Below are positions 37,643 to 46,477 of a stretch of 64,000 nucleotides of DNA, in pieces. The stretch's first letter is position 1. Every line of letters starts with the position of its first letter. This stretch comes from a virus (lineage: Duplodnaviria > Caudoviricetes): IMG/VR virus record IMGVR_UViG_3300032335_001059, positions 1 to 64,000 of that record; one strand, written 5' to 3'. The notes beneath the pieces were generated by a model. That model did not search any database and was not told where the DNA came from. It saw nothing but the letters and a program-made list of their open reading frames with translations. A program made the position numbers and the translations under genes.

Positions 37643-38565
37643 TAAGAGTTTAGCTCTGGGTAAATTGGGTTAATTCGGTGAAAGTCCATCAATAATTATA
37701 GACATTTTGTAAAAAAATGTACTATACTTGTAAGGATAATACCGAGCCAAGTTATAATTTAAATAATTATAAAAGGTGTAGAGACTAGGTATTGAAACTA
37801 TTTAAAAATAGAATATAATATACCCACGAAATCCCAATATTAAAATGTATAAAAAAGAAGAATGGAAACCTATTTTAGGTTTTAACAATTATTTAGCTAG
37901 TAATTTAGGAAGAATTAAAACAAAAACTGGAAAAATTTTAAAAGGATATGACCAAAATGGTTATAAAATTGTTAAAATAACAAACAACTTAAATAAAAGA
38001 AAAACAATAGGTGTACATAGACTTATTGCTTTAGCTTTTTTACCAAATCCTAATAATTTACCAAGTGTTAATCATATTAATAAAGTAAGAAATGATAACA
38101 CTATTGAAAATTTAGAATGGATGTCTGTAAAAGACAATAATGTTCATTCTAAAAAAAGAAAAAAAACTTCTTTTCAAGCAAATTCAGTATTTTATGAACG
38201 AGATTTAAAACTTATTCATTTAATGCTTGAATATAATATTCCAAGAGAGCTTATAGAAAAAATATATCAAATTGAACGCAACACACTTACTAATTTATTT
38301 AATGATAAAACATATAAAGAAGATTGTGTCAAACTTGATTTAAATTTTAATAAATTTTCTAAAAAAAGAACAGCTAAAACAATTGAAGAACATAAACAAG
38401 AAATTAAACAATTATTGCAACAAAATTATAGTTGTCGCAGTATTGCTAAAAAATTTAATGTTTCTCATTCGTCAATAATAAATTTTAATAAAGATATAGT
38501 CCGAACTACAGTAAATGATAAATCTGTAGAGCTAAAAGATAAAGAGCTTTTAGGTTAACAAATTG
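37643..38565 (+). mobile_element. Group I intron 1 (923 nt) with HNH gene in the P8 loop
   Basis: P1 cagggt/agctctg with U.G pair; P3 37664-69/37833-38; P4 37675-79/37741-45; R aaggtgtagagacta 37773-87; S aagatatagtcc 38491-502; ends in G; removal restores the frame. Confidence 0.85.
37845..38558 (+). CDS. Intron-encoded NUMOD4-HNH homing endonuclease with C-terminal HTHs
   Basis: EEWKPILGF...SNLGRI...VHRLIALAFLPNP..LPSVNHINKVRNDN..ENLEW. Confidence 0.85.
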   Translation: MYKKEEWKPILGFNNYLASNLGRIKTKTGKILKGYDQNGYKIVKITNNLNKRKTIGVHRLIALAFLPNPNNLPSVNHINKVRNDNTIENLEWMSVKDNNVHSKKRKKTSFQANSVFYERDLKLIHLMLEYNIPRELIEKIYQIERNTLTNLFNDKTYKEDCVKLDLNFNKFSKKRTAKTIEEHKQEIKQLLQQNYSCRSIAKKFNVSHSSIINFNKDIVRTTVNDKSVELKDKELLG

Positions 38566-38753
38566 GGACTACTAAAGACAATTGGGTTAAAATGCCTAAA
38601 CACATGCTTTATGCTCGTTGTTTAGCTTTAGGTGCTAATCGTATTGCACCAGACATGTTACTAGGTCTATATACTGTTGAAGAAATGGTAGATGTAACAA
38701 ATGCAAGTAATGTAAGTATTACTGAAGACGGAGATGTAAAAATTATTAATTAA
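38566..38753 (+). CDS. RecT/Bet-like protein, exon 2 (not in ORF track)
   Basis: TTKDNWVKMPKHMLYARCLALGANRIAPDMLLGLYTVEEM...; spliced product 200 aa. Confidence 0.75.
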
Positions 38754-39583: not shown

Positions 39584-40552
39584 ATGTATAGTATAAATGA
39601 TAAACCTGAATATTTAACTCCAAATTATTTATTAAGTAAAATATCACAAGAAGATATTTGGAAATACTATACTAATTTAACTCCAGATTCATCAAGTTTA
39701 TATACAAATCCATCAAGACATGATGTAAATGCAGGTTGTAAATTTTTTCAACAATCTGGTTATTGGTGGTTAACTGATTTTGCTAGAAAAAAAGTATATA
39801 ATTGCTTCACTATACTTAAAGATATGTATAATATACCTTACCCGAAGGTACTAGAAATGGTATATGAAGATTTTTTAGGTAAAGGAAGCAATTATGTAAA
39901 ATCAGATTACATATATATACCGAAATTAATTAAAGAAGAAACATTAATTGATTGTAAACTTCAAAATTATACTAAACAAGATATTGATTATCTCAAATCC
40001 TTTCATCTAACCGCAAATATTTGCAAAAGACATAATGTCTATAGTGTAGCAGTATATTGGATTAATGGTAAACAAGTTTATAGTTATAAAAATAGTGACC
40101 CTTGTTTAGGATATTTAGAAAATGGTAAATGGAAATTATATCATTATAAAAGAAAAGATTTCAGATTTGTGAGCAATATAAATTCTTCAATGTTGCAAGG
40201 TTTAGACCAACTTAGATACGAAAGTAATTTATTAATCATAACAAAAAGTAAAAAAGATGTTATGGTTTATGATTTATTAGGATATGAATCAGTTGCTCCA
40301 CATTCTGAAGCTTTGTCTAAATGGGAAATGCATTTACCTCATTTACAAAACAATTACGACCAAATATTAATTAATTTTGACAATGATGAAGCTGGGTATA
40401 TAGCTTCTGAATCTATAATTAATAAATATTCAAATTTGATTCCTTTATTTATTCCGATAGAATCAAATCAAAAAGATATTAGTGACTATATAAGGTCATA
40501 TGGAATAAGTCAAACAATAAATAATTTAAAAAAATGGCTAGAAAAATTGTAG
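39584..40552 (+). CDS. DNA primase (crAss-type TOPRIM)
   Basis: LIITKSKKDVM, NFDND, KDISDY. Confidence 0.8.
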   Translation: MYSINDKPEYLTPNYLLSKISQEDIWKYYTNLTPDSSSLYTNPSRHDVNAGCKFFQQSGYWWLTDFARKKVYNCFTILKDMYNIPYPKVLEMVYEDFLGKGSNYVKSDYIYIPKLIKEETLIDCKLQNYTKQDIDYLKSFHLTANICKRHNVYSVAVYWINGKQVYSYKNSDPCLGYLENGKWKLYHYKRKDFRFVSNINSSMLQGLDQLRYESNLLIITKSKKDVMVYDLLGYESVAPHSEALSKWEMHLPHLQNNYDQILINFDNDEAGYIASESIINKYSNLIPLFIPIESNQKDISDYIRSYGISQTINNLKKWLEKL

Positions 40553-40938
40553 TTTTTTCAACAAAAACAAACACATCGCAAACTTTAATGTCAACTTCTT
40601 CAACATGGGGAGAACTTAGAGCAGAAATTCCTTCATTGTTAAATGAAGATATGGTAGCTACTATTGTAGAAACTAGAAATCAATTAGTATCTATGGAAGC
40701 AATTCTTCCTGAAGGTGAATTTAAATTAGTTTTAACTCCTGCTAAAACTAAATCTGGTTCTGAATCTATTGATGTAGCTTCAGTAATTGCTTGTCTTAAA
40801 GAAAAATTTGATGAAGCTTTTGAAGATATCTTAAACGAAATCGAAGAAGGTGAGCATTCATCTACTTCACATCTTAGTTCATCTGATTTAAGTTTAGCAG
40901 CAGAAGCAGCTAAAATTAAAAGAGAATTAGGTCTGTAA
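40534..40938 (+). CDS. Ubiquitin-like (beta-grasp) protein: ~75-aa domain ending KTKSG plus 59-aa acidic extension
   Basis: Beta-beta-alpha-beta pattern (RKIVVFST/SQTLMS/TWGELRAEI/EFKLVLTP), Gly75; first gene of the E2-JAB-E1 cluster; fold is inference. Confidence 0.65.
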   Translation: MARKIVVFSTKTNTSQTLMSTSSTWGELRAEIPSLLNEDMVATIVETRNQLVSMEAILPEGEFKLVLTPAKTKSGSESIDVASVIACLKEKFDEAFEDILNEIEEGEHSSTSHLSSSDLSLAAEAAKIKRELGL

Positions 40939-40946
40939 TTTTATTT

Positions 40947-40985
40947 AAAACTCTCTTGTTAATACAACAAGAGAGTTTTTTATTT
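40947..40985 (+). terminator. Intrinsic terminator between Ubl and E2-like genes
   Basis: aaaactctcttgtt-aatac-aacaagagagtttttt, 14-bp stem. Confidence 0.8.
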
Positions 40986-40998
40986 TTAAATTAAAAAA

Positions 40999-42303
40999 AT
41001 GAAAGCATTAATAACTGGAATTACAGTAGGAAAATCTAGAAATGCATCTGCAACTTTAATATATAGAATATTTGATAAATATAAAGATTGTGATACTCAT
41101 ATAAATATTATAGATGACCTAACTGATGGTAATTGGGCAATAGATAAAAGAGATGTTATATTTATAGAAGATGAAATTCCTAATATAGAATATAACTCTA
41201 AATGTTACATTTGTTCTGAAGAATACTTTAATGATGTTAGTGAAAAATTTTTACAAGATTTTACATTAAATTCTTATAACAAATTAGTAGGAAAAGAATA
41301 CATTAGCGATGAAGATTTTTACATTAAATATTATAGTATTAAAAAAGATAATATTTTTGATTGGAAAAAAATAATTAAAGATTTTTTTGGAGATAGAGTA
41401 GATATACAAAATGAATATTTTATAGTACATTTTCCAAAAAAACATGTAGAAAATAGTTCAGGAAGACAACATACTATTTATGATGTATATTTAAAAATTA
41501 CAATAAATTATTCAAATTCTTCTAGAATGTATTATGGACATTATTTTAATGAGTATTTTGATAAATATTTACAAAATTGTTATGCAAATCCTTGTTTTTT
41601 ATTAACTAGTGGTACAAGAACTACAGCATCTAAAGAAGAACATATTTCTTCATATTGTTTTTCTCATTTTCAAAGAGGATTTGGTGAATGGAGAAATACT
41701 TGTTTAGGCGAAGGATTGTTAAGAAAATATGGAAGTATTCCAATTTCTAATGAAGAACTTGCTGTAGGTTATTGTGTAGCTTTAGAAAATTATCTTTCTT
41801 GGGAATCTTTAGAAGGCGGACCTTATATTAAAATTAGTGATATTCGTTCTAATATTGAAAGAGAAAATTTAAATTCTTCTCTTTTTAGTTCAAGAATAAT
41901 GAAAAGTTTAATATCAAATAAATTTAACAATTTGATTTTAAATTTAGATACAAATAAAGTTTACATAAACGAAAATGTTCTAGATGAAGTTAATTCTTTT
42001 TATGCCATTAATGGAGATTATATTTCTTTAGACAAATTAAATCAAAATGATAAAAATAACAGTAATCATAAAGAAATTGTTGGAAATAACTTTTTTACTT
42101 TTAATGGAAAAGAAACTGGTAAATTAACAATTGATTATTCTTTAAATAAAAGTTCATCTGAAACAATTTTTTCTGGAGAATTAGATGTTTATAGAATGCA
42201 TTATTCTTCTTTAGAACAATCTTTAACAAATAAAATAAATAGTATTATAAATGACAAATCAAACAACTTCCTTGAAAAAAAACCCTTATTCAGAATTAAC
42301 TGA
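40999..42303 (+). CDS. E2/UBC-like domain protein
   Basis: YCFSHFQRGFGEWRNTCLGEG (Cys235) resembles prokaryotic E2 H-x(n)-CLG; context between Ubl and JAB. Confidence 0.55.
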   Translation: MKALITGITVGKSRNASATLIYRIFDKYKDCDTHINIIDDLTDGNWAIDKRDVIFIEDEIPNIEYNSKCYICSEEYFNDVSEKFLQDFTLNSYNKLVGKEYISDEDFYIKYYSIKKDNIFDWKKIIKDFFGDRVDIQNEYFIVHFPKKHVENSSGRQHTIYDVYLKITINYSNSSRMYYGHYFNEYFDKYLQNCYANPCFLLTSGTRTTASKEEHISSYCFSHFQRGFGEWRNTCLGEGLLRKYGSIPISNEELAVGYCVALENYLSWESLEGGPYIKISDIRSNIERENLNSSLFSSRIMKSLISNKFNNLILNLDTNKVYINENVLDEVNSFYAINGDYISLDKLNQNDKNNSNHKEIVGNNFFTFNGKETGKLTIDYSLNKSSSETIFSGELDVYRMHYSSLEQSLTNKINSIINDKSNNFLEKKPLFRIN

Positions 42304-42592
42304 GTTTTCTAAAAAGAAGGGTAAATTAATATTGAGTCAAACTGTAATTGACCAAATTAAATATTTATGTTCTAAAATGCCATTAGTAGAATGGTCAGGT
42401 GTATTATACCACACTAGTGAAGGTGATTTACAAAATCCAGAACAATTTACATGTAAAGCTGAATATATATTGCTATTAGATAAAGGCACTTCAGGTTATA
42501 CAGAATATGATTTTTCTTCTCCTTCTTTTACAGAAGCTTTGATGGAAAAACCAGAGTTTATGGAATGGTCTATGAGCCATTGTCACTCGCAT
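42251..42592 (+). CDS. JAB/MPN (JAMM) metalloprotease, exon 1
   Basis: VEWSGVLY (catalytic Glu) ... HCHSH, ending at the intron junction. Confidence 0.8.
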
Positions 42593-42805
42593 TCGAGAAA
42601 TTGTGGTGCAGCTACAAAGTGATTTGTAGTAAAAAATAGAGGATGAATTGCTGGAACGATGACAAAGTAATCCAATCAGCAGCCAAGCTATAGTTACAAC
42701 TATAGAAGGTTCAACGACTACCTGAGCAGTATAGTCTGCTTAATAACAGGAAGTAGCTAATAGTAGTGTATTAGTGAAAAAGCGTCCTCCAACTTAACAT
42801 GTCCG

Positions 42806-43642
42806 TTAAGTTGATGATATAGTCTGTTCGTAGTTAATTCTTTGAAGAAAAACATTATGTTTTCTTTTTAAGAAAAAAGTTAAGTTATCGTAACAAGAAT
42901 AGAAATTATAAAAATCTTTTTTATTGCATATATCTAAAATATAATAATTACTTTTATTGGTAATTTTAAATTTTTCAAGTTTAAGCTCTTCGGCAATACC
43001 TTTTAAAAAAAGATATGTTCCGCAAATGTTTATACCGTATGTTCTATAAAATTCATTTTTTACTCTTTTATCTGTATGGGCATAAACATGACCATCGCCA
43101 TCAAAATATCCTAATATTACAGCTTTTCTAAACTGTTTAGGTATTATTGGTAAAAAATTTTCAAGAGTAAAAGTTTTATTTCTATTAATACCAAGTGCAA
43201 TTAAATTTCTACAAAGAGTTTGATTACCTAATGTTATTGATGACCTATTATAAGTTTTTTTAGTTCTTTTATCATAAGGTGTAGAATTTAATATTTTAGT
43301 TTCAAATCCAATTTCGGATTTAATAAAATTTAAAAAATCAACATCTTTGGTATTAACAACAATAGTTAGATTATATAATTTTTTTATTTTATCAAAACCG
43401 ATACAACCATCAGCAGCTATATACCCCAATATATAAGCTTTTGAATATGTATCAATTTTTGAAAAATAATCAACATTACCTTGTGAAGGTCTTTTATTAT
43501 TATAACCGCAATCTCTTTTGAGAATATAAGTTATAGTAGGATAAGGTTTTTGCATAATTTCAGCAATTTTTAAAACAGGAGTTTTGTTTAAATACAATTC
43601 TTTAATTTTTTCAATTTGTTCTAATGATAATCTAGTTTTCAT
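42806..43642 (-). CDS. Intron-encoded double-motif LAGLIDADG endonuclease with N-terminal HTH, antisense to the intron (start likely 43642)
   Basis: AYILGYIAADG and VILGYFDGDG motifs. Confidence 0.85.
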   Translation of the reverse strand: MKTRLSLEQIEKIKELYLNKTPVLKIAEIMQKPYPTITYILKRDCGYNNKRPSQGNVDYFSKIDTYSKAYILGYIAADGCIGFDKIKKLYNLTIVVNTKDVDFLNFIKSEIGFETKILNSTPYDKRTKKTYNRSSITLGNQTLCRNLIALGINRNKTFTLENFLPIIPKQFRKAVILGYFDGDGHVYAHTDKRVKNEFYRTYGINICGTYLFLKGIAEELKLEKFKITNKSNYYILDICNKKDFYNFYSCYDNLTFFLKRKHNVFLQRINYEQTISST

Positions 43643-43663
43643 GTTTTTTCTTTTGTTATAACA

Positions 43664-43694
43664 CAAAGGTAAGAATAAAACTTATAATAACAAA
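43664..43694 (-). promoter_or_regulatory. Bacteroidota sigma-A promoter for the antisense LAGLIDADG gene
   Basis: TTTG-N19-TACCTTTG, ending 21 nt upstream of ATG 43642. Confidence 0.75.
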
Positions 43695-43722
43695 TTTTCT
43701 TAATGTTTGCTACGAGTAAACG

Positions 43723-44562
43723 AACAATATGAGCGTATTTTTTAGCGCGACTGACAATGAAGAACTTACAGATAATGCTCCTAATTACAACTACTACCTT
43801 TCGTTAATTGTAAATAACAAAAATGAATATTGCGCTAGAATTGCATTCATTGGTGAAATTGAAGGTAGGACAATAAAATTTAAAGATAGACACGGAGTAG
43901 AGCAAGCAATAACTTCAGCAAATAAACAAGTTACATTTTATTACGAAATGGAAATATTTGCTGAAAGTTCTAATTTAATTGATGATTTCTTTGTTAAGCA
44001 GTATGAAAAAGTAATTGCAGCTAAACCAGTACAAACTTTTCCGCAATTTGAAAATAGTTATACAAATTATAACGTTACTAATTATGAAAATTATGGTATA
44101 GGTTATAATAAAAATTATGCAAAAAATAATTACAAACAAGGTAAATTATTTGATGACAAAAGTACTGAAAAGATTGAAGATAAATTAACTTGGGATTCTC
44201 AAGCTGTAAACTTTATTAAAAGATTGATTGATGTAAATTATACTATGGAAAACATAGCATTTTATTTAAACTACAATCAAGATTATTCTTCTCCTTTACA
44301 TAATTATTTAGATGATTTGATTCCTAAAAACAAAGGACATTTCAAAAACAATAAAGAAGTTAAAGAATTTATTGAAAATAGAGTAGCTAATGCAGATGAA
44401 GTATTTGAATATTTTTCAATTACTTGTGATGAGTATGATAATACAAGTGATTTAAATGATGTATGGATAGATTCTATTAATTTTCTAAAAGCAAGTAGTT
44501 TTAAAAATCATCCAACATCAAAATTAATTATAGAAGAAATGGACAAATGGGTATGGAAATAA
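43723..44562 (+). CDS. JAB/MPN protease, exon 2 (spliced product about 393 aa)
   Basis: NNMSVFFSATD completes HxH-x7-S-x2-D; YYLSLIVNN. Confidence 0.8.
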   Translation, partial: NNMSVFFSATDNEELTDNAPNYNYYLSLIVNNKNEYCARIAFIGEIEGRTIKFKDRHGVEQAITSANKQVTFYYEMEIFAESSNLIDDFFVKQYEKVIAAKPVQTFPQFENSYTNYNVTNYENYGIGYNKNYAKNNYKQGKLFDDKSTEKIEDKLTWDSQAVNFIKRLIDVNYTMENIAFYLNYNQDYSSPLHNYLDDLIPKNKGHFKNNKEVKEFIENRVANADEVFEYFSITCDEYDNTSDLNDVWIDSINFLKASSFKNHPTSKLIIEEMDKWVWK

Positions 44563-44738
44563 AAAAAATTAAACAAAGTACAGTAAGATTTTCAGAAGCT
44601 TACTTTTATAAACCAAATGTAGAAGTACTAGTATTAGGATTAGGGGGTATCGGCTCATGGCTGACCCTCAATCTTGCTAGATTAGAATGTAATTTACATT
44701 TATACGATTATGATTTAATTGATGAAGTAAATTTAGCT
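44547..44738 (+). CDS. E1/ThiF-family adenylyltransferase, exon 1
   Basis: LVLGLGGIGSW, YDYDLIDEVNLA. Confidence 0.85.
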
Positions 44739-45985
44739 AGGAATATTCTATTATATTAATTATTTTTGTATATACAAAAAATAATATAATGGATAAATAC
44801 TCAGGAGAATTTAAAACAATTGACACACAAGAAAAAGCTTATGTTTTAGGCTTGTTTTACGCAGATGGATATATTTATAAAAGAAAATATAGTTATTTTT
44901 CAGGAATTACTTTACATTTAAAAGATGAATATTTAATAGATAAATTATGTGAAATTTTTTCTTTTTTTCAAAAAACTTTTGACAAAAGTAAACCTTCAAC
45001 AATACATTTGAGATGTAATGTAAAAGAATTTATTTTAGATTTAAAAGCAAACGGAATGCATGAAAGAAAATCTTTTGAAAACAAAGAGAATTTACATGTA
45101 CCAAATATTGATAAATCTTTAATTAATCATTTTATTAGAGGATTTTTTGATGGAGATGGTAGTGTTTATTTTAGTAAAACTGCATCTATAAATTCTAAAT
45201 ATTGTACTTTTACAGGAGTATGTTTTTCTTTTTTAAAAGAAATTCAGGAAATTTTAAAAACAAATAATATTAATTTTAGATTTACAATTAATAAACTTTC
45301 TAAAAAAGAATCTTACATTTTTGGAAGAAAAATTAATAATCCACAAGATGTTGGAATATTAACTTTATCTTTAAGAAAAGAAATTGAATTTTTTTCAAAT
45401 TTTTTATATAAAAATAGTAATATACATCTTTATAGAAAATATGAAATAATGAATTCTTGGACAGAAACTTTATCTGAAAGATTTATATGTAGAATATGTA
45501 ATTCTAAAAATACAATATTTGTAGGAAAAAATAAATATAAATGTAAAAATTGTAATAAAATAATTCCAATAATAGGTAATATTTTTGTTAAAAAAACAAG
45601 CAAGCCTTGTAAACATTGTAATTCACTAAATACCGTAGGAAACGGTAAAACTAAAAGTAGAACTACAAATGAAATAATATCTGAAAAATTTTTGTGTAGA
45701 AATTGTAATAAAAACTCCAGTTATTTAATGACTGGTCTTAATAACAGTAATGTTATTAATGGAGAGGATGAATTGACTGGAAAGCTAAGGGATGAAAGAC
45801 TCCTATGCCAATCAGCAGCCAAGCCGTCAGAGACGGAAGGTTCAGAGACTACCTGAGTAATAGCGATATTACTTAATAACAGGAAGTAGTTATAATATAT
45901 ATTGAAGTTATAATGAAAAAGTGTCCTCCATCCTTATAGGATGAAGATATAGTCCATGCCGCATAGAAATATGGGATAAACATTG
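44739..45985 (+). mobile_element. Group I intron 3 (1247 nt) with LAGLIDADG gene in the P1 loop
   Basis: P10/IGS tgact-ggtc 45729-37; P2 taataaca-gtaa-tgttatta; P3 45764-70/45922-28; Q aatcagcag; R gaaggttcagagacta 45836-51; S aagatatagtcc 45944-55; splicing gives NLA-GQMY. Confidence 0.9.
44789..45856 (+). CDS. Intron-encoded double-motif LAGLIDADG endonuclease with C-terminal zinc ribbons
   Basis: AYVLGLFYADG, FIRGFFDGDG; four CxxC pairs; last ~40 codons overlap the ribozyme core. Confidence 0.85.
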   Translation: MDKYSGEFKTIDTQEKAYVLGLFYADGYIYKRKYSYFSGITLHLKDEYLIDKLCEIFSFFQKTFDKSKPSTIHLRCNVKEFILDLKANGMHERKSFENKENLHVPNIDKSLINHFIRGFFDGDGSVYFSKTASINSKYCTFTGVCFSFLKEIQEILKTNNINFRFTINKLSKKESYIFGRKINNPQDVGILTLSLRKEIEFFSNFLYKNSNIHLYRKYEIMNSWTETLSERFICRICNSKNTIFVGKNKYKCKNCNKIIPIIGNIFVKKTSKPCKHCNSLNTVGNGKTKSRTTNEIISEKFLCRNCNKNSSYLMTGLNNSNVINGEDELTGKLRDERLLCQSAAKPSETEGSETT

Positions 45986-46477
45986 GGTCAAATGTATGCT
46001 AATACTGATATTGGATTGAGAAAACTTGATAGTATTAATAGTTTAGTTAATTTATTATGTGATAAACCTAATATAATTTCTTTAAATGAAAAATATACTA
46101 ATGAAAGTTTGACTGGTCCAATAGTATTTTCTTGTTTTGACAATATGGCTGCAAGAAAATTAGCTTTTGATAAATGGAAAGCTGAAGACGATAGAGAACT
46201 TTTTATTGATGGAAGAATGGCACTTTCAACAGGAGAAGTTTATTGTGTAACAAAAGGAAAAGAAAAAGAATACGAAAGAACTTTATTTGATGATTCTGAA
46301 GTTGAAGATGCTGCTTGTAGTATGAAAGCAACTACTTTTAGTGGTATGACTATCGCAAGTATAATGACAGCATTATTTTGTAATTATGTAGGTACAACTT
46401 TAAATCCAGATTTACCAGTTAATTTATCTTTTAAAACAACTTATAATTTTCCGTTAATGATGTTTGAAAGTATATGA
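45986..46477 (+). CDS. E1/ThiF-family protein, exon 2 (spliced product about 227 aa)
   Basis: GQMY...IGLRK...SCFDNMAARK...FIDGRM...EDAACSMKAT (candidate thioester Cys). Confidence 0.85.
   Translation, partial: GQMYANTDIGLRKLDSINSLVNLLCDKPNIISLNEKYTNESLTGPIVFSCFDNMAARKLAFDKWKAEDDRELFIDGRMALSTGEVYCVTKGKEKEYERTLFDDSEVEDAACSMKATTFSGMTIASIMTALFCNYVGTTLNPDLPVNLSFKTTYNFPLMMFESI

Follow-up and report, generated by a model that had tools for sequence, protein, structure and literature searches.

Group I introns interrupt the genes for a JAB peptidase and a ThiF/E1 enzyme in an FpV4-like phage of Flavobacteriia

Two neighbouring phage genes, one for a JAB peptidase and the other for a ThiF/E1 enzyme of a ubiquitin-like (Ubl) operon, were each found to be interrupted by a group I intron carrying a LAGLIDADG endonuclease gene. 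The genes lie in the IMG/VR virus record IMGVR_UViG_3300032335_001059 (Duplodnaviria; Caudoviricetes), a record of 86.8 kb that is ~99% complete, the first 64 kb of which (positions 1 to 64,000) form the stretch of DNA analysed here, termed the window. Its gene content and gene order match those of the Flavobacterium psychrophilum phage FpV4 (genus Fipvunavirus) and of a larger set of uncultured relatives. Both introns have exact limits, both endonuclease genes are intact, joining the exons restores the catalytic motif of each enzyme, and alleles that lack the introns occur in related phages. It is very probable that these are two independent, mobile introns of the IA type that homed into the JAB and ThiF/E1 genes of an FpV4-like phage of Flavobacteriia; both are predicted to splice and to home, and they are real but ordinary selfish elements.

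Splice junctions, ribozyme cores and endonuclease genes

The JAB/MPN+ peptidase gene is divided between exon 1 (42251-42592, + strand, 114 codons), which ends ...CAC UCG CAU and so closes on HSH with the two zinc-ligand histidines, and exon 2 (43723-44562, + strand, 279 codons), which starts AAC AAU AUG AGC GUA UUU UUU AGC GCG ACU GAC and encodes NNMSVFFSATD. Between them is an intron of 1130 nt (42593-43722, + strand) that ends ...UAAACG, and the join reads HSH|NNMSVFFSATD, i.e. HxHx7Sx2D, with the break directly after the second zinc-binding His. The ThiF/E1 gene is likewise divided between exon 1 (44547-44738, + strand, 64 codons, including the GxGGIGS nucleotide-binding loop and DYDLIDEVNLA), which ends ...AAU UUA GCU, and exon 2 (45986-46477, + strand, 163 codons), which starts GGU CAA and encodes GQMYANTDIG. 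Here the intron is 1247 nt long (44739-45985, + strand) and ends ...CAUUG, and the join reads NLA|GQ. Both junctions have the form U|...G|, and in-frame stops occur 9 (JAB) and 6 (E1) codons into the introns.

Spliced in silico, JAB has 393 aa and E1 has 227 aa, and both proteins align without gaps across the junctions to the uninterrupted genes of FpV4 (JAB, HCHSHNNMSVFFSATD in the window vs HIHSHNTMAVFFSGTD in FpV4; E1, DEVNLAGQMY vs EEHNTGGQLF). The predicted exon-junction peptides of the spliced products are ...HCHSHNNMSVFF... for JAB and ...DEVNLAGQMYAN... for E1. An earlier note on this DNA, made from the sequence, had placed the introns inside catalytic motifs and held that ligation restores frame and motif, and the junctions HSH|NNMSVFFSATD and NLA|GQ agree with it on both points.

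The identities of the two host enzymes are well supported. The joined JAB exons restore the E...HxHx7Sx2D motif, and all of 9 homologues keep the zinc-site residues E47, H112, H114, S122 and D125. For an intact JAB orthologue, a structural model (predicted local distance difference test [pLDDT], 84.8) returned CSN5, Rpn11, AMSH, archaeal JAMM1 and Citrobacter BubCD as the top Foldseek matches (E ~1e-6, probability 1.0), while Pfam Prok-JAB matched JAB at sub-threshold scores only (E 0.012-0.063) and a JAB profile searched against PDB sequences gave only weak matches to Rpn11/CSN5 (E 0.17-0.9). E1 exon 1 matched Pfam ThiF at profile positions 20-60 (31.1 bits) and exon 2 takes up the profile at positions 65-195; an intact E1 orthologue matched over positions 20-196 (70.4 bits; cut-off, 28.1). 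In an alignment of E1 to MoeB and UBA3, the intron site falls at the positions NLQ|RQ and NLN|RQ. The Arg of this NLxRQ motif is Gly or Ser in the phage E1 family, and so the chemistry of the phage E1 may differ.

A search for intron-less alleles, as proposed in the earlier note, was carried out at both intron sites across 18 IMG/VR loci, and the exons were directly contiguous at both sites in four of them (L011, L012, L013 and L014), as they are in the more distantly related FpV4. Three of these relatives (L011-L013) have exons 95-97% identical to those of the window in protein and lack both introns. At the E1 site, 89 of 90 bases are identical between the junction DNA of L011 and L012 and the window sequence after splicing, and because a shift of the boundary by one base destroys this match, the limits 44739-45985 are exact. 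A genome from another metagenome (L010) has both introns (99.65% and 100% identical) next to neighbouring genes that are 97.6-97.9% identical, which argues against an assembly artefact. An intein reading was ruled out by the in-frame stops within 6-9 codons and by the presence of a ribozyme in each insertion.

Both introns matched the full length (positions 1-253) of the Rfam model RF00028 above its gathering score of 50 bits, the JAB intron at 42606-42845 (66.7 bits, E 5e-17) and the E1 intron at 45712-45976 (82 bits, E 1e-21). Neither intron was detected by Rfam on the whole window at gathering thresholds or on 11 kb at E-value thresholds; these early misses are presumably speed-filter artefacts, as short sub-windows and a genome search detected both. 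The two cores are alike, with identical single-stranded junctions and with hairpins that differ in sequence. In an alignment of seven sequences (A6), 31 of the 55 consensus pairs keep their pairing through changes on both sides, and the compensated helices include P2, P3, P5, P6, P7.1/7.2 and P8. With these scores and this covariation, the identification of 42593-43722 and 44739-45985 as group I introns in the earlier note was borne out.

The guanosine-binding P7 aligned to the model in both introns (CGACUA/AUAGUC and AGACUA/AUAGUC), the terminal guanosines are G43722 and G45985, and both cores have the consensus J6/7-P7 and J8/7 sequences. Two extra helices are present between P7 and P3' in both cores (P7.1/P7.2), which we take to assign the introns to subgroup IA. 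Many phages have similar cores, for instance Vibrio, Pseudoalteromonas and crAss-like phages, in which they lie in nrd, terminase, DNA polymerase-adjacent or rIIA regions; these introns belong to the same RF00028 family, with 69-86% core nucleotide similarity to the window cores, and some are annotated as Intron_gpI, as in the nrd genes of a Vibrio phage (MW824376.1). The closest database relative of a window intron core was found at 1785-2700 of the crAss-like phage cr116_1 (L033; MT774389.1), directly 3' of an 'intron-encoded endonuclease' and between rIIA-like gene fragments, and is probably a further unannotated intron.

The proposed P1 of the JAB intron is formed by GCAU|U and the internal guide sequence (IGS) GGUGC (42605-42609), located 2 nt 5' of P2 (42612-42630); in an unbiased scan this P1 candidate has 5 bp, with U42592 paired to G42606. 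The core P3-P8 extends to about 42822 and is followed by P9 (UUCGUAG 42825-42831 with CUACGAG 43710-43716, read from the sequence), the loop of which contains the endonuclease gene. This gene is antisense (42806-43666, - strand, 286 codons, with a likely start at the ATG at 43642) and encodes a double-motif LAGLIDADG endonuclease with an N-terminal helix-turn-helix (HTH). The protein matched Pfam LAGLIDADG_3 in two stretches (37.5 bits; cut-off, 22.5) and HTH_38, matched the endonuclease family phrog_4645 (E 2.5e-41), and is 36% identical to gp55, the antisense endonuclease of phage Fpv1. A promoter-like sequence, TTTG-N19-TAccTTTG (43664-43694, - strand), lies 22 nt 5' of the antisense ATG and is a positional match only; the Bacteroidetes-type TTTG-N17-23-TAnnTTTG showed no enrichment across the window (11 occurrences vs 7.7 expected), and a sigma-70 promoter scan of the window gave fewer matches than shuffles.

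In the E1 intron, the 5' strand of P1 is at the splice site and the proposed IGS, UGACUGGU (45729-45736; UGACU-G-GU), is located 2 nt 5' of P2 (45739-45758), a spacing shared with the JAB intron and with a Vibrio nrd intron that has no open reading frame (ORF). This IGS was the top candidate in an unbiased scan for a G pairing with the splice-site U (G45734.U44738) and forms a P1 of 5 bp (GCU|AG with CUGGU) and a P10 of 5 bp (GGUCA with UGACU). The core P3-P9, which the minimum free energy fold recovers, runs to about 45976 and is contiguous at the 3' end of the intron. With the IGS at this place, the endonuclease gene sits in the P1 loop. It is in the sense orientation (44789-45856, + strand, 355 codons), encodes a LAGLIDADG endonuclease with C-terminal CxxC zinc-ribbon repeats, and overlaps the IGS and P2-P7 of the ribozyme with its last ~145 nt. 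The protein matched Pfam LAGLIDADG_3 in two stretches (39 bits; cut-off, 22.5), Zn_ribbon_8 weakly (below the cut-off) and phrog_4645 (E 8.6e-36), and is 100% identical in L010. A perfect 25-nt palindrome, TTATTTTTGTATATACAAAAAATAA (44760-44784), ends 4 nt 5' of the sense ATG and may control translation of the endonuclease.

Mobility and recurrent insertion in related phages

Both endonuclease ORFs are intact and each has both LAGLIDADG motifs (LGYIAADG/LGYFDGDG and LGLFYADG/RGFFDGDG in the translations). At the JAB junction, a stretch of 60 nt is 75-78% identical to the intron-less relatives L012 and L013, with flanks at 92-100%, and this divergent exon patch (~50 nt) has the appearance of co-conversion by a donor of diverged sequence. 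Of the JAB exon differences from the intron-less alleles, two (-4 G and +6 U) give rise to P1/P10 pairing with the proposed IGS. There is no divergent patch at the E1 junction (98% identity).

On the mechanism that these observations suggest, the operon would be transcribed through the introns, and each ribozyme would fold, bind guanosine and excise itself by two transesterifications. Exon ligation would then join HSH to NNMSVFFSATD and NLA to GQ, and full-length JAB and E1 would be translated, while unspliced RNA would give truncated proteins without half of each active site. In co-infection, the endonucleases would cut intron-less alleles and repair would copy the intron together with adjacent exon sequence. 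Homing of this kind would explain the presence/absence polymorphism, the JAB exon patch and the placement of the introns in the most conserved motifs; self-splicing would remove the cost to the host gene, and the introns would spread via endonuclease-driven gene conversion.

Further introns were present in the same two genes of related phages. The JAB gene occurs in two pieces around an annotated endonuclease in the cultured F. psychrophilum phages Fpv1, Fpv2, Fpv20, FpV21 and the FPSV series, and not in FpV4 or Fpv3; the GenBank annotation of this Fpv1-type locus goes no further than two hypothetical proteins and an endonuclease. In Fpv1 (NC_031914.1), the JAB intron is 1021 nt long (L117:3298-4318), has U|...G| ends, matches RF00028 (43.4 bits, E 3e-11) and carries an antisense LAGLIDADG gene. 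Its insertion site, GH|IHSH, is 12 nt upstream of the HSH|NN site of the window. Comparison by blastn and direct inspection showed that Fpv1 and FpV4 are 99.8-99.9% identical around the JAB intron, except for a 35-nt divergent exon patch beside it. The Fpv1-type intron thus resembles that of the window in its host gene, its location in the JAMM region, its group I core, its homologous antisense LAGLIDADG gene, its intron-less sister and its exon patch, and differs in the site, in a core of another type without P7.1/P7.2 and in the uninterrupted E1 gene of the same phages. In PHROGs, the intact JAB protein falls into two families, with the border at residue ~110. Both of them, phrog_21448 (117 aa) and phrog_16107 (314 aa), are listed with 'unknown function', correspond to the separate exon products of a single JAB gene and match the sizes of Fpv1 gp56 and gp54, a database artefact of the unrecognised Fpv1-type intron.

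At the E1 codon boundary used in the window, introns without an ORF were found in three IMG/VR phages (L022 and L023, 319 nt; L024, 246 nt), of which that in L024 matched RF00028 below the cut-off (43 bits, E 6e-10). These introns share with the E1 intron of the window the same point and phase of insertion (N-x-G|G/S-Q) and an IGS that pairs with the conserved 3' exon (G/A)G(U/A)CAA, with covariation between IGS and 3' exon at this site (UUGACU/AGUCAA in L024, UUGUCU/GGACAA in L022); unlike it, they have a smaller core of a different type without P7.1/P7.2 and no endonuclease gene. In another pair of loci (L026 and L027), a group I intron (64.6 bits) interrupts an invariant E1 motif, FxDG|R, at a site different from that of the window. 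Interrupted E1 genes are rare, with 1 split gene among the best 80 of 178 IMG/VR E1 loci. Overall, five separate intron insertions were found in JAB and E1 across related phages, all within invariant motifs, in agreement with the earlier note's view of the two genes as conserved, selected targets.

The FpV4-like phages appear to be generally intron-rich. In the window itself, a third candidate group I intron (37646-38570) splits a RecT-like recombinase gene (exon 1, 37228-~37645; C-terminal piece, 38592-38753); it has a partial RF00028 match limited to P4-P7 (37672-37789, 27.2 bits, E 1e-4) and carries an ORF for a NUMOD4-HNH endonuclease (37845-38558). Fpv1 (NC_031914.1) has four RF00028 matches, three of them away from the JAB gene on the minus strand (74123-74356, 79660-79820 and 78917-79026; 59.3, 45.8 and 31.3 bits, respectively), and the genome of L026 (G003) has three, two of them outside E1 (74499-74815 and 65512-65728; 91.2 and 61.7 bits).

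Competing explanations for the interrupted genes

Several features weigh against two mobile, spliced introns. With only 5 bp, P1 is a weak helix in both introns (two of its pairs in the E1 intron are wobbles), P10 of the JAB intron forms only with a 1-nt offset, these pairings show no covariation within this exact lineage, and the ~1 kb between the strands of P1 in the E1 intron and of P9 in the JAB intron could slow folding. The antisense endonuclease gene implies convergent transcription that might lower the expression of JAB. In the E1 intron, an 8-bp hairpin (45717-45735; CCAGUUAU/AUGACUGG, with one U.G pair) resembles P1, with its 5' strand inside the endonuclease ORF and its 3' strand sequestering the proposed IGS. 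Because Rfam aligns this hairpin as one of the model stems, the assignment of P1 in the E1 intron is not unique, and the hairpin could compete with the productive P1/P10 or be the sign of a second 5' splice site. An E1 intron of smaller size, beginning at this hairpin after U45722, was ruled out as a productive splice, with E1 not restored and exon 2 out of frame.

The earlier note had also proposed that the introns act as a timing or metabolic gate on Ubl activity. Under this explanation the introns would have been co-opted such that JAB and E1 are made only when both ribozymes fold, for example according to GTP/Mg2+ status, the timing of infection, ribosomes translating the sense endonuclease across the core, or release of the IGS from the 45717-45735 hairpin, and transcription of the antisense endonuclease would tune JAB in addition. 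The interruption of two enzymes in a single operon would suit a regulator, as would the inability of unspliced RNA, with its stops 9 and 6 codons in, to encode active enzymes, the sequestering of the E1 intron's IGS by the hairpin, and the promoter-like match 5' of the antisense gene; yet the relatives with exons 95-97% identical in protein (L011-L013) have neither intron, the JAB intron is the main difference between Fpv1 and FpV4, few E1 loci in IMG/VR are interrupted, and intact homing endonucleases together with a patch resembling co-conversion are hallmarks of recent selfish spread and not of a fixed regulator. Because close relatives and FpV4 do without them, the introns are dispensable, polymorphic selfish elements, and the proposed gate, for which no positive support was found, is improbable. 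If true, it would mean that selfish introns have been domesticated as regulators of the phage Ubl-conjugation pathway in this lineage.

It is very unlikely that the insertions are dead, i.e. that the ribozymes have lost the ability to splice, leaving JAB and E1 inactivated and the Ubl operon in decay. The weak P1 helices, the large ORF inserts in L1 and L9 and the less than universal occurrence of the operon among phages could be read in this way, but both cores match the whole RF00028 model above the cut-off, with consensus J6/7-P7 and J8/7, the four exons have no stops or frameshifts and keep every invariant residue, and exons and introns are 99.6-100% identical in two diverged genomes. The exon pairs could instead be translated separately and reassembled as split enzymes without RNA splicing, given start codons near the beginning of each exon 2 (ATG 43729 in JAB; TTG 45983 and ATG 45992 in E1) and the annotation of the Fpv1 JAB pieces as separate genes. 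This is extremely unlikely, as the breaks divide the zinc site (HxH from S..D) and the nucleotide-binding motif, each break is occupied exactly by a complete ribozyme, and intron-less alleles are single ORFs. Two mobile, self-splicing group I introns remain the preferred reading.

Operon context and relation to known systems

The interrupted genes belong to an operon within the replication/recombination module of the window, in the order primase-like gene, Ubl-like gene, 434-aa protein, JAB, E1, 422-aa protein and RusA-like resolvase. The Ubl-like gene (40534-40938, + strand) encodes a core of ~75 aa ending K-x-K-S-G, followed by a variable tail; in an alignment of homologues (A2), P69, K73 and G75 are invariant and the tails after the core range from 0 to 210 aa, with some homologues terminating 1-4 residues past the conserved Gly. 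The protein had no match in a PDB sequence search, and the Atlas gave leads only, to the beta-grasp families ThiS, ubiquitin, TmoB and YukD (scores 0.78-0.81). The gene for the 434-aa protein (40999-42303, + strand), a candidate E2-like component, encodes the invariant H223 and C235 and a WESLEGGP motif. This protein had no match in Pfam, PADLOC or PDB sequence searches; its AlphaFold model was poor (pLDDT 49.6), a Foldseek search of this model against PDB returned nothing significant, and VIA-align matched residues 118-280 of the low-confidence model to UBC/UEV/RWD folds with Z of only 4-6. The Ubl and E2 assignments are therefore only suggestive, the former relying on the core and the Atlas leads and the latter on the invariant Cys and the weak fold matches. 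The label 'Ubl pathway' in the earlier note thus stands on firm ground where the two interrupted enzymes are concerned and is no more than plausible for the other components. Between the Ubl-like gene and that of the 434-aa protein, a strong terminator-like hairpin (40947-40979; 14-bp stem followed by a T run) may be an attenuator giving more transcript for Ubl than for the enzymes.

Homologues of JAB (33-38% identity, MPN domain) were also found in crAss-like Bacteroides phages (MH675552.1 [crAss001], OQ221536-58, MT074136/8 and others), some of them annotated as 'metalloprotease domain containing protein'. Judging from these homologies, the operon family may extend to the Crassvirales.

Bacterial operons for Ubl conjugation with E1, E2, JAB and Ubl components include Bil, Bub and CBASS Cap2/Cap3 (PMC10557695, PMC10097602, PMC1779556). 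The window operon resembles these systems in its order of Ubl, E2-like candidate, JAB and E1 and in the match of the JAB model to Citrobacter BubCD, and differs from them in being encoded by a phage, within a replication/recombination module, and in having no convincing PADLOC family: E1 exon 1 matched the E1-E2 (Cap2) models only weakly and the other operon proteins had no match. No report of introns in the bacterial Bil, Bub or CBASS systems was found.

Group I introns with homing endonucleases are familiar from phage genes, among them td, nrdB and nrdD (sunY) of T4, SPO1-type DNA polymerase of Bacillus phages, and Staphylococcus phage Twort. The window introns share with known phage introns the IA-type P7-P3' helices, an endonuclease ORF in a peripheral loop, a position in the most conserved codons and presence/absence polymorphism. 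Unlike those introns, they are hosted by the JAB and ThiF/E1 genes of a Ubl-like operon and not by genes for nucleotide metabolism, replication or packaging, and the endonuclease gene of the JAB intron is antisense. The T4 introns carry GIY-YIG or HNH enzymes, whereas those of the window carry LAGLIDADG enzymes.

The searchable literature held no report of introns in phage JAB, E1 or Ubl genes or in FpV phages, with an earlier mention in the original FpV genome paper possible. The earlier note's statement that no such introns had been reported stands to the extent that no paper was found, but the JAB intron was already present, unannotated, in GenBank genomes of F. psychrophilum phages. Phage group I introns with LAGLIDADG genes are already known, and the basic picture of these elements is unchanged by the present findings; to our knowledge and in the searchable literature, what is new is the pair of host genes, together with the recurrence of introns in JAB and E1. 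The occupation of one E1 site by two types of ribozyme and the recurrence of an antisense endonuclease in two JAB introns are modestly interesting.

Gene callers and PHROGs take the pieces for hypothetical proteins with no relation to each other, so that the introns mask a conserved Ubl/JAB/E1 operon of Flavobacteriia phages, among them cultured phages of a fish pathogen. The Fpv1-type and FpV4-type phages form a natural pair for studying splicing, homing and fitness cost. The five insertions in invariant motifs are independent evidence that the JAB and E1 motifs, and the operon with them, are under strong purifying selection, which supports treating the Ubl/JAB/E1 operon as functional.

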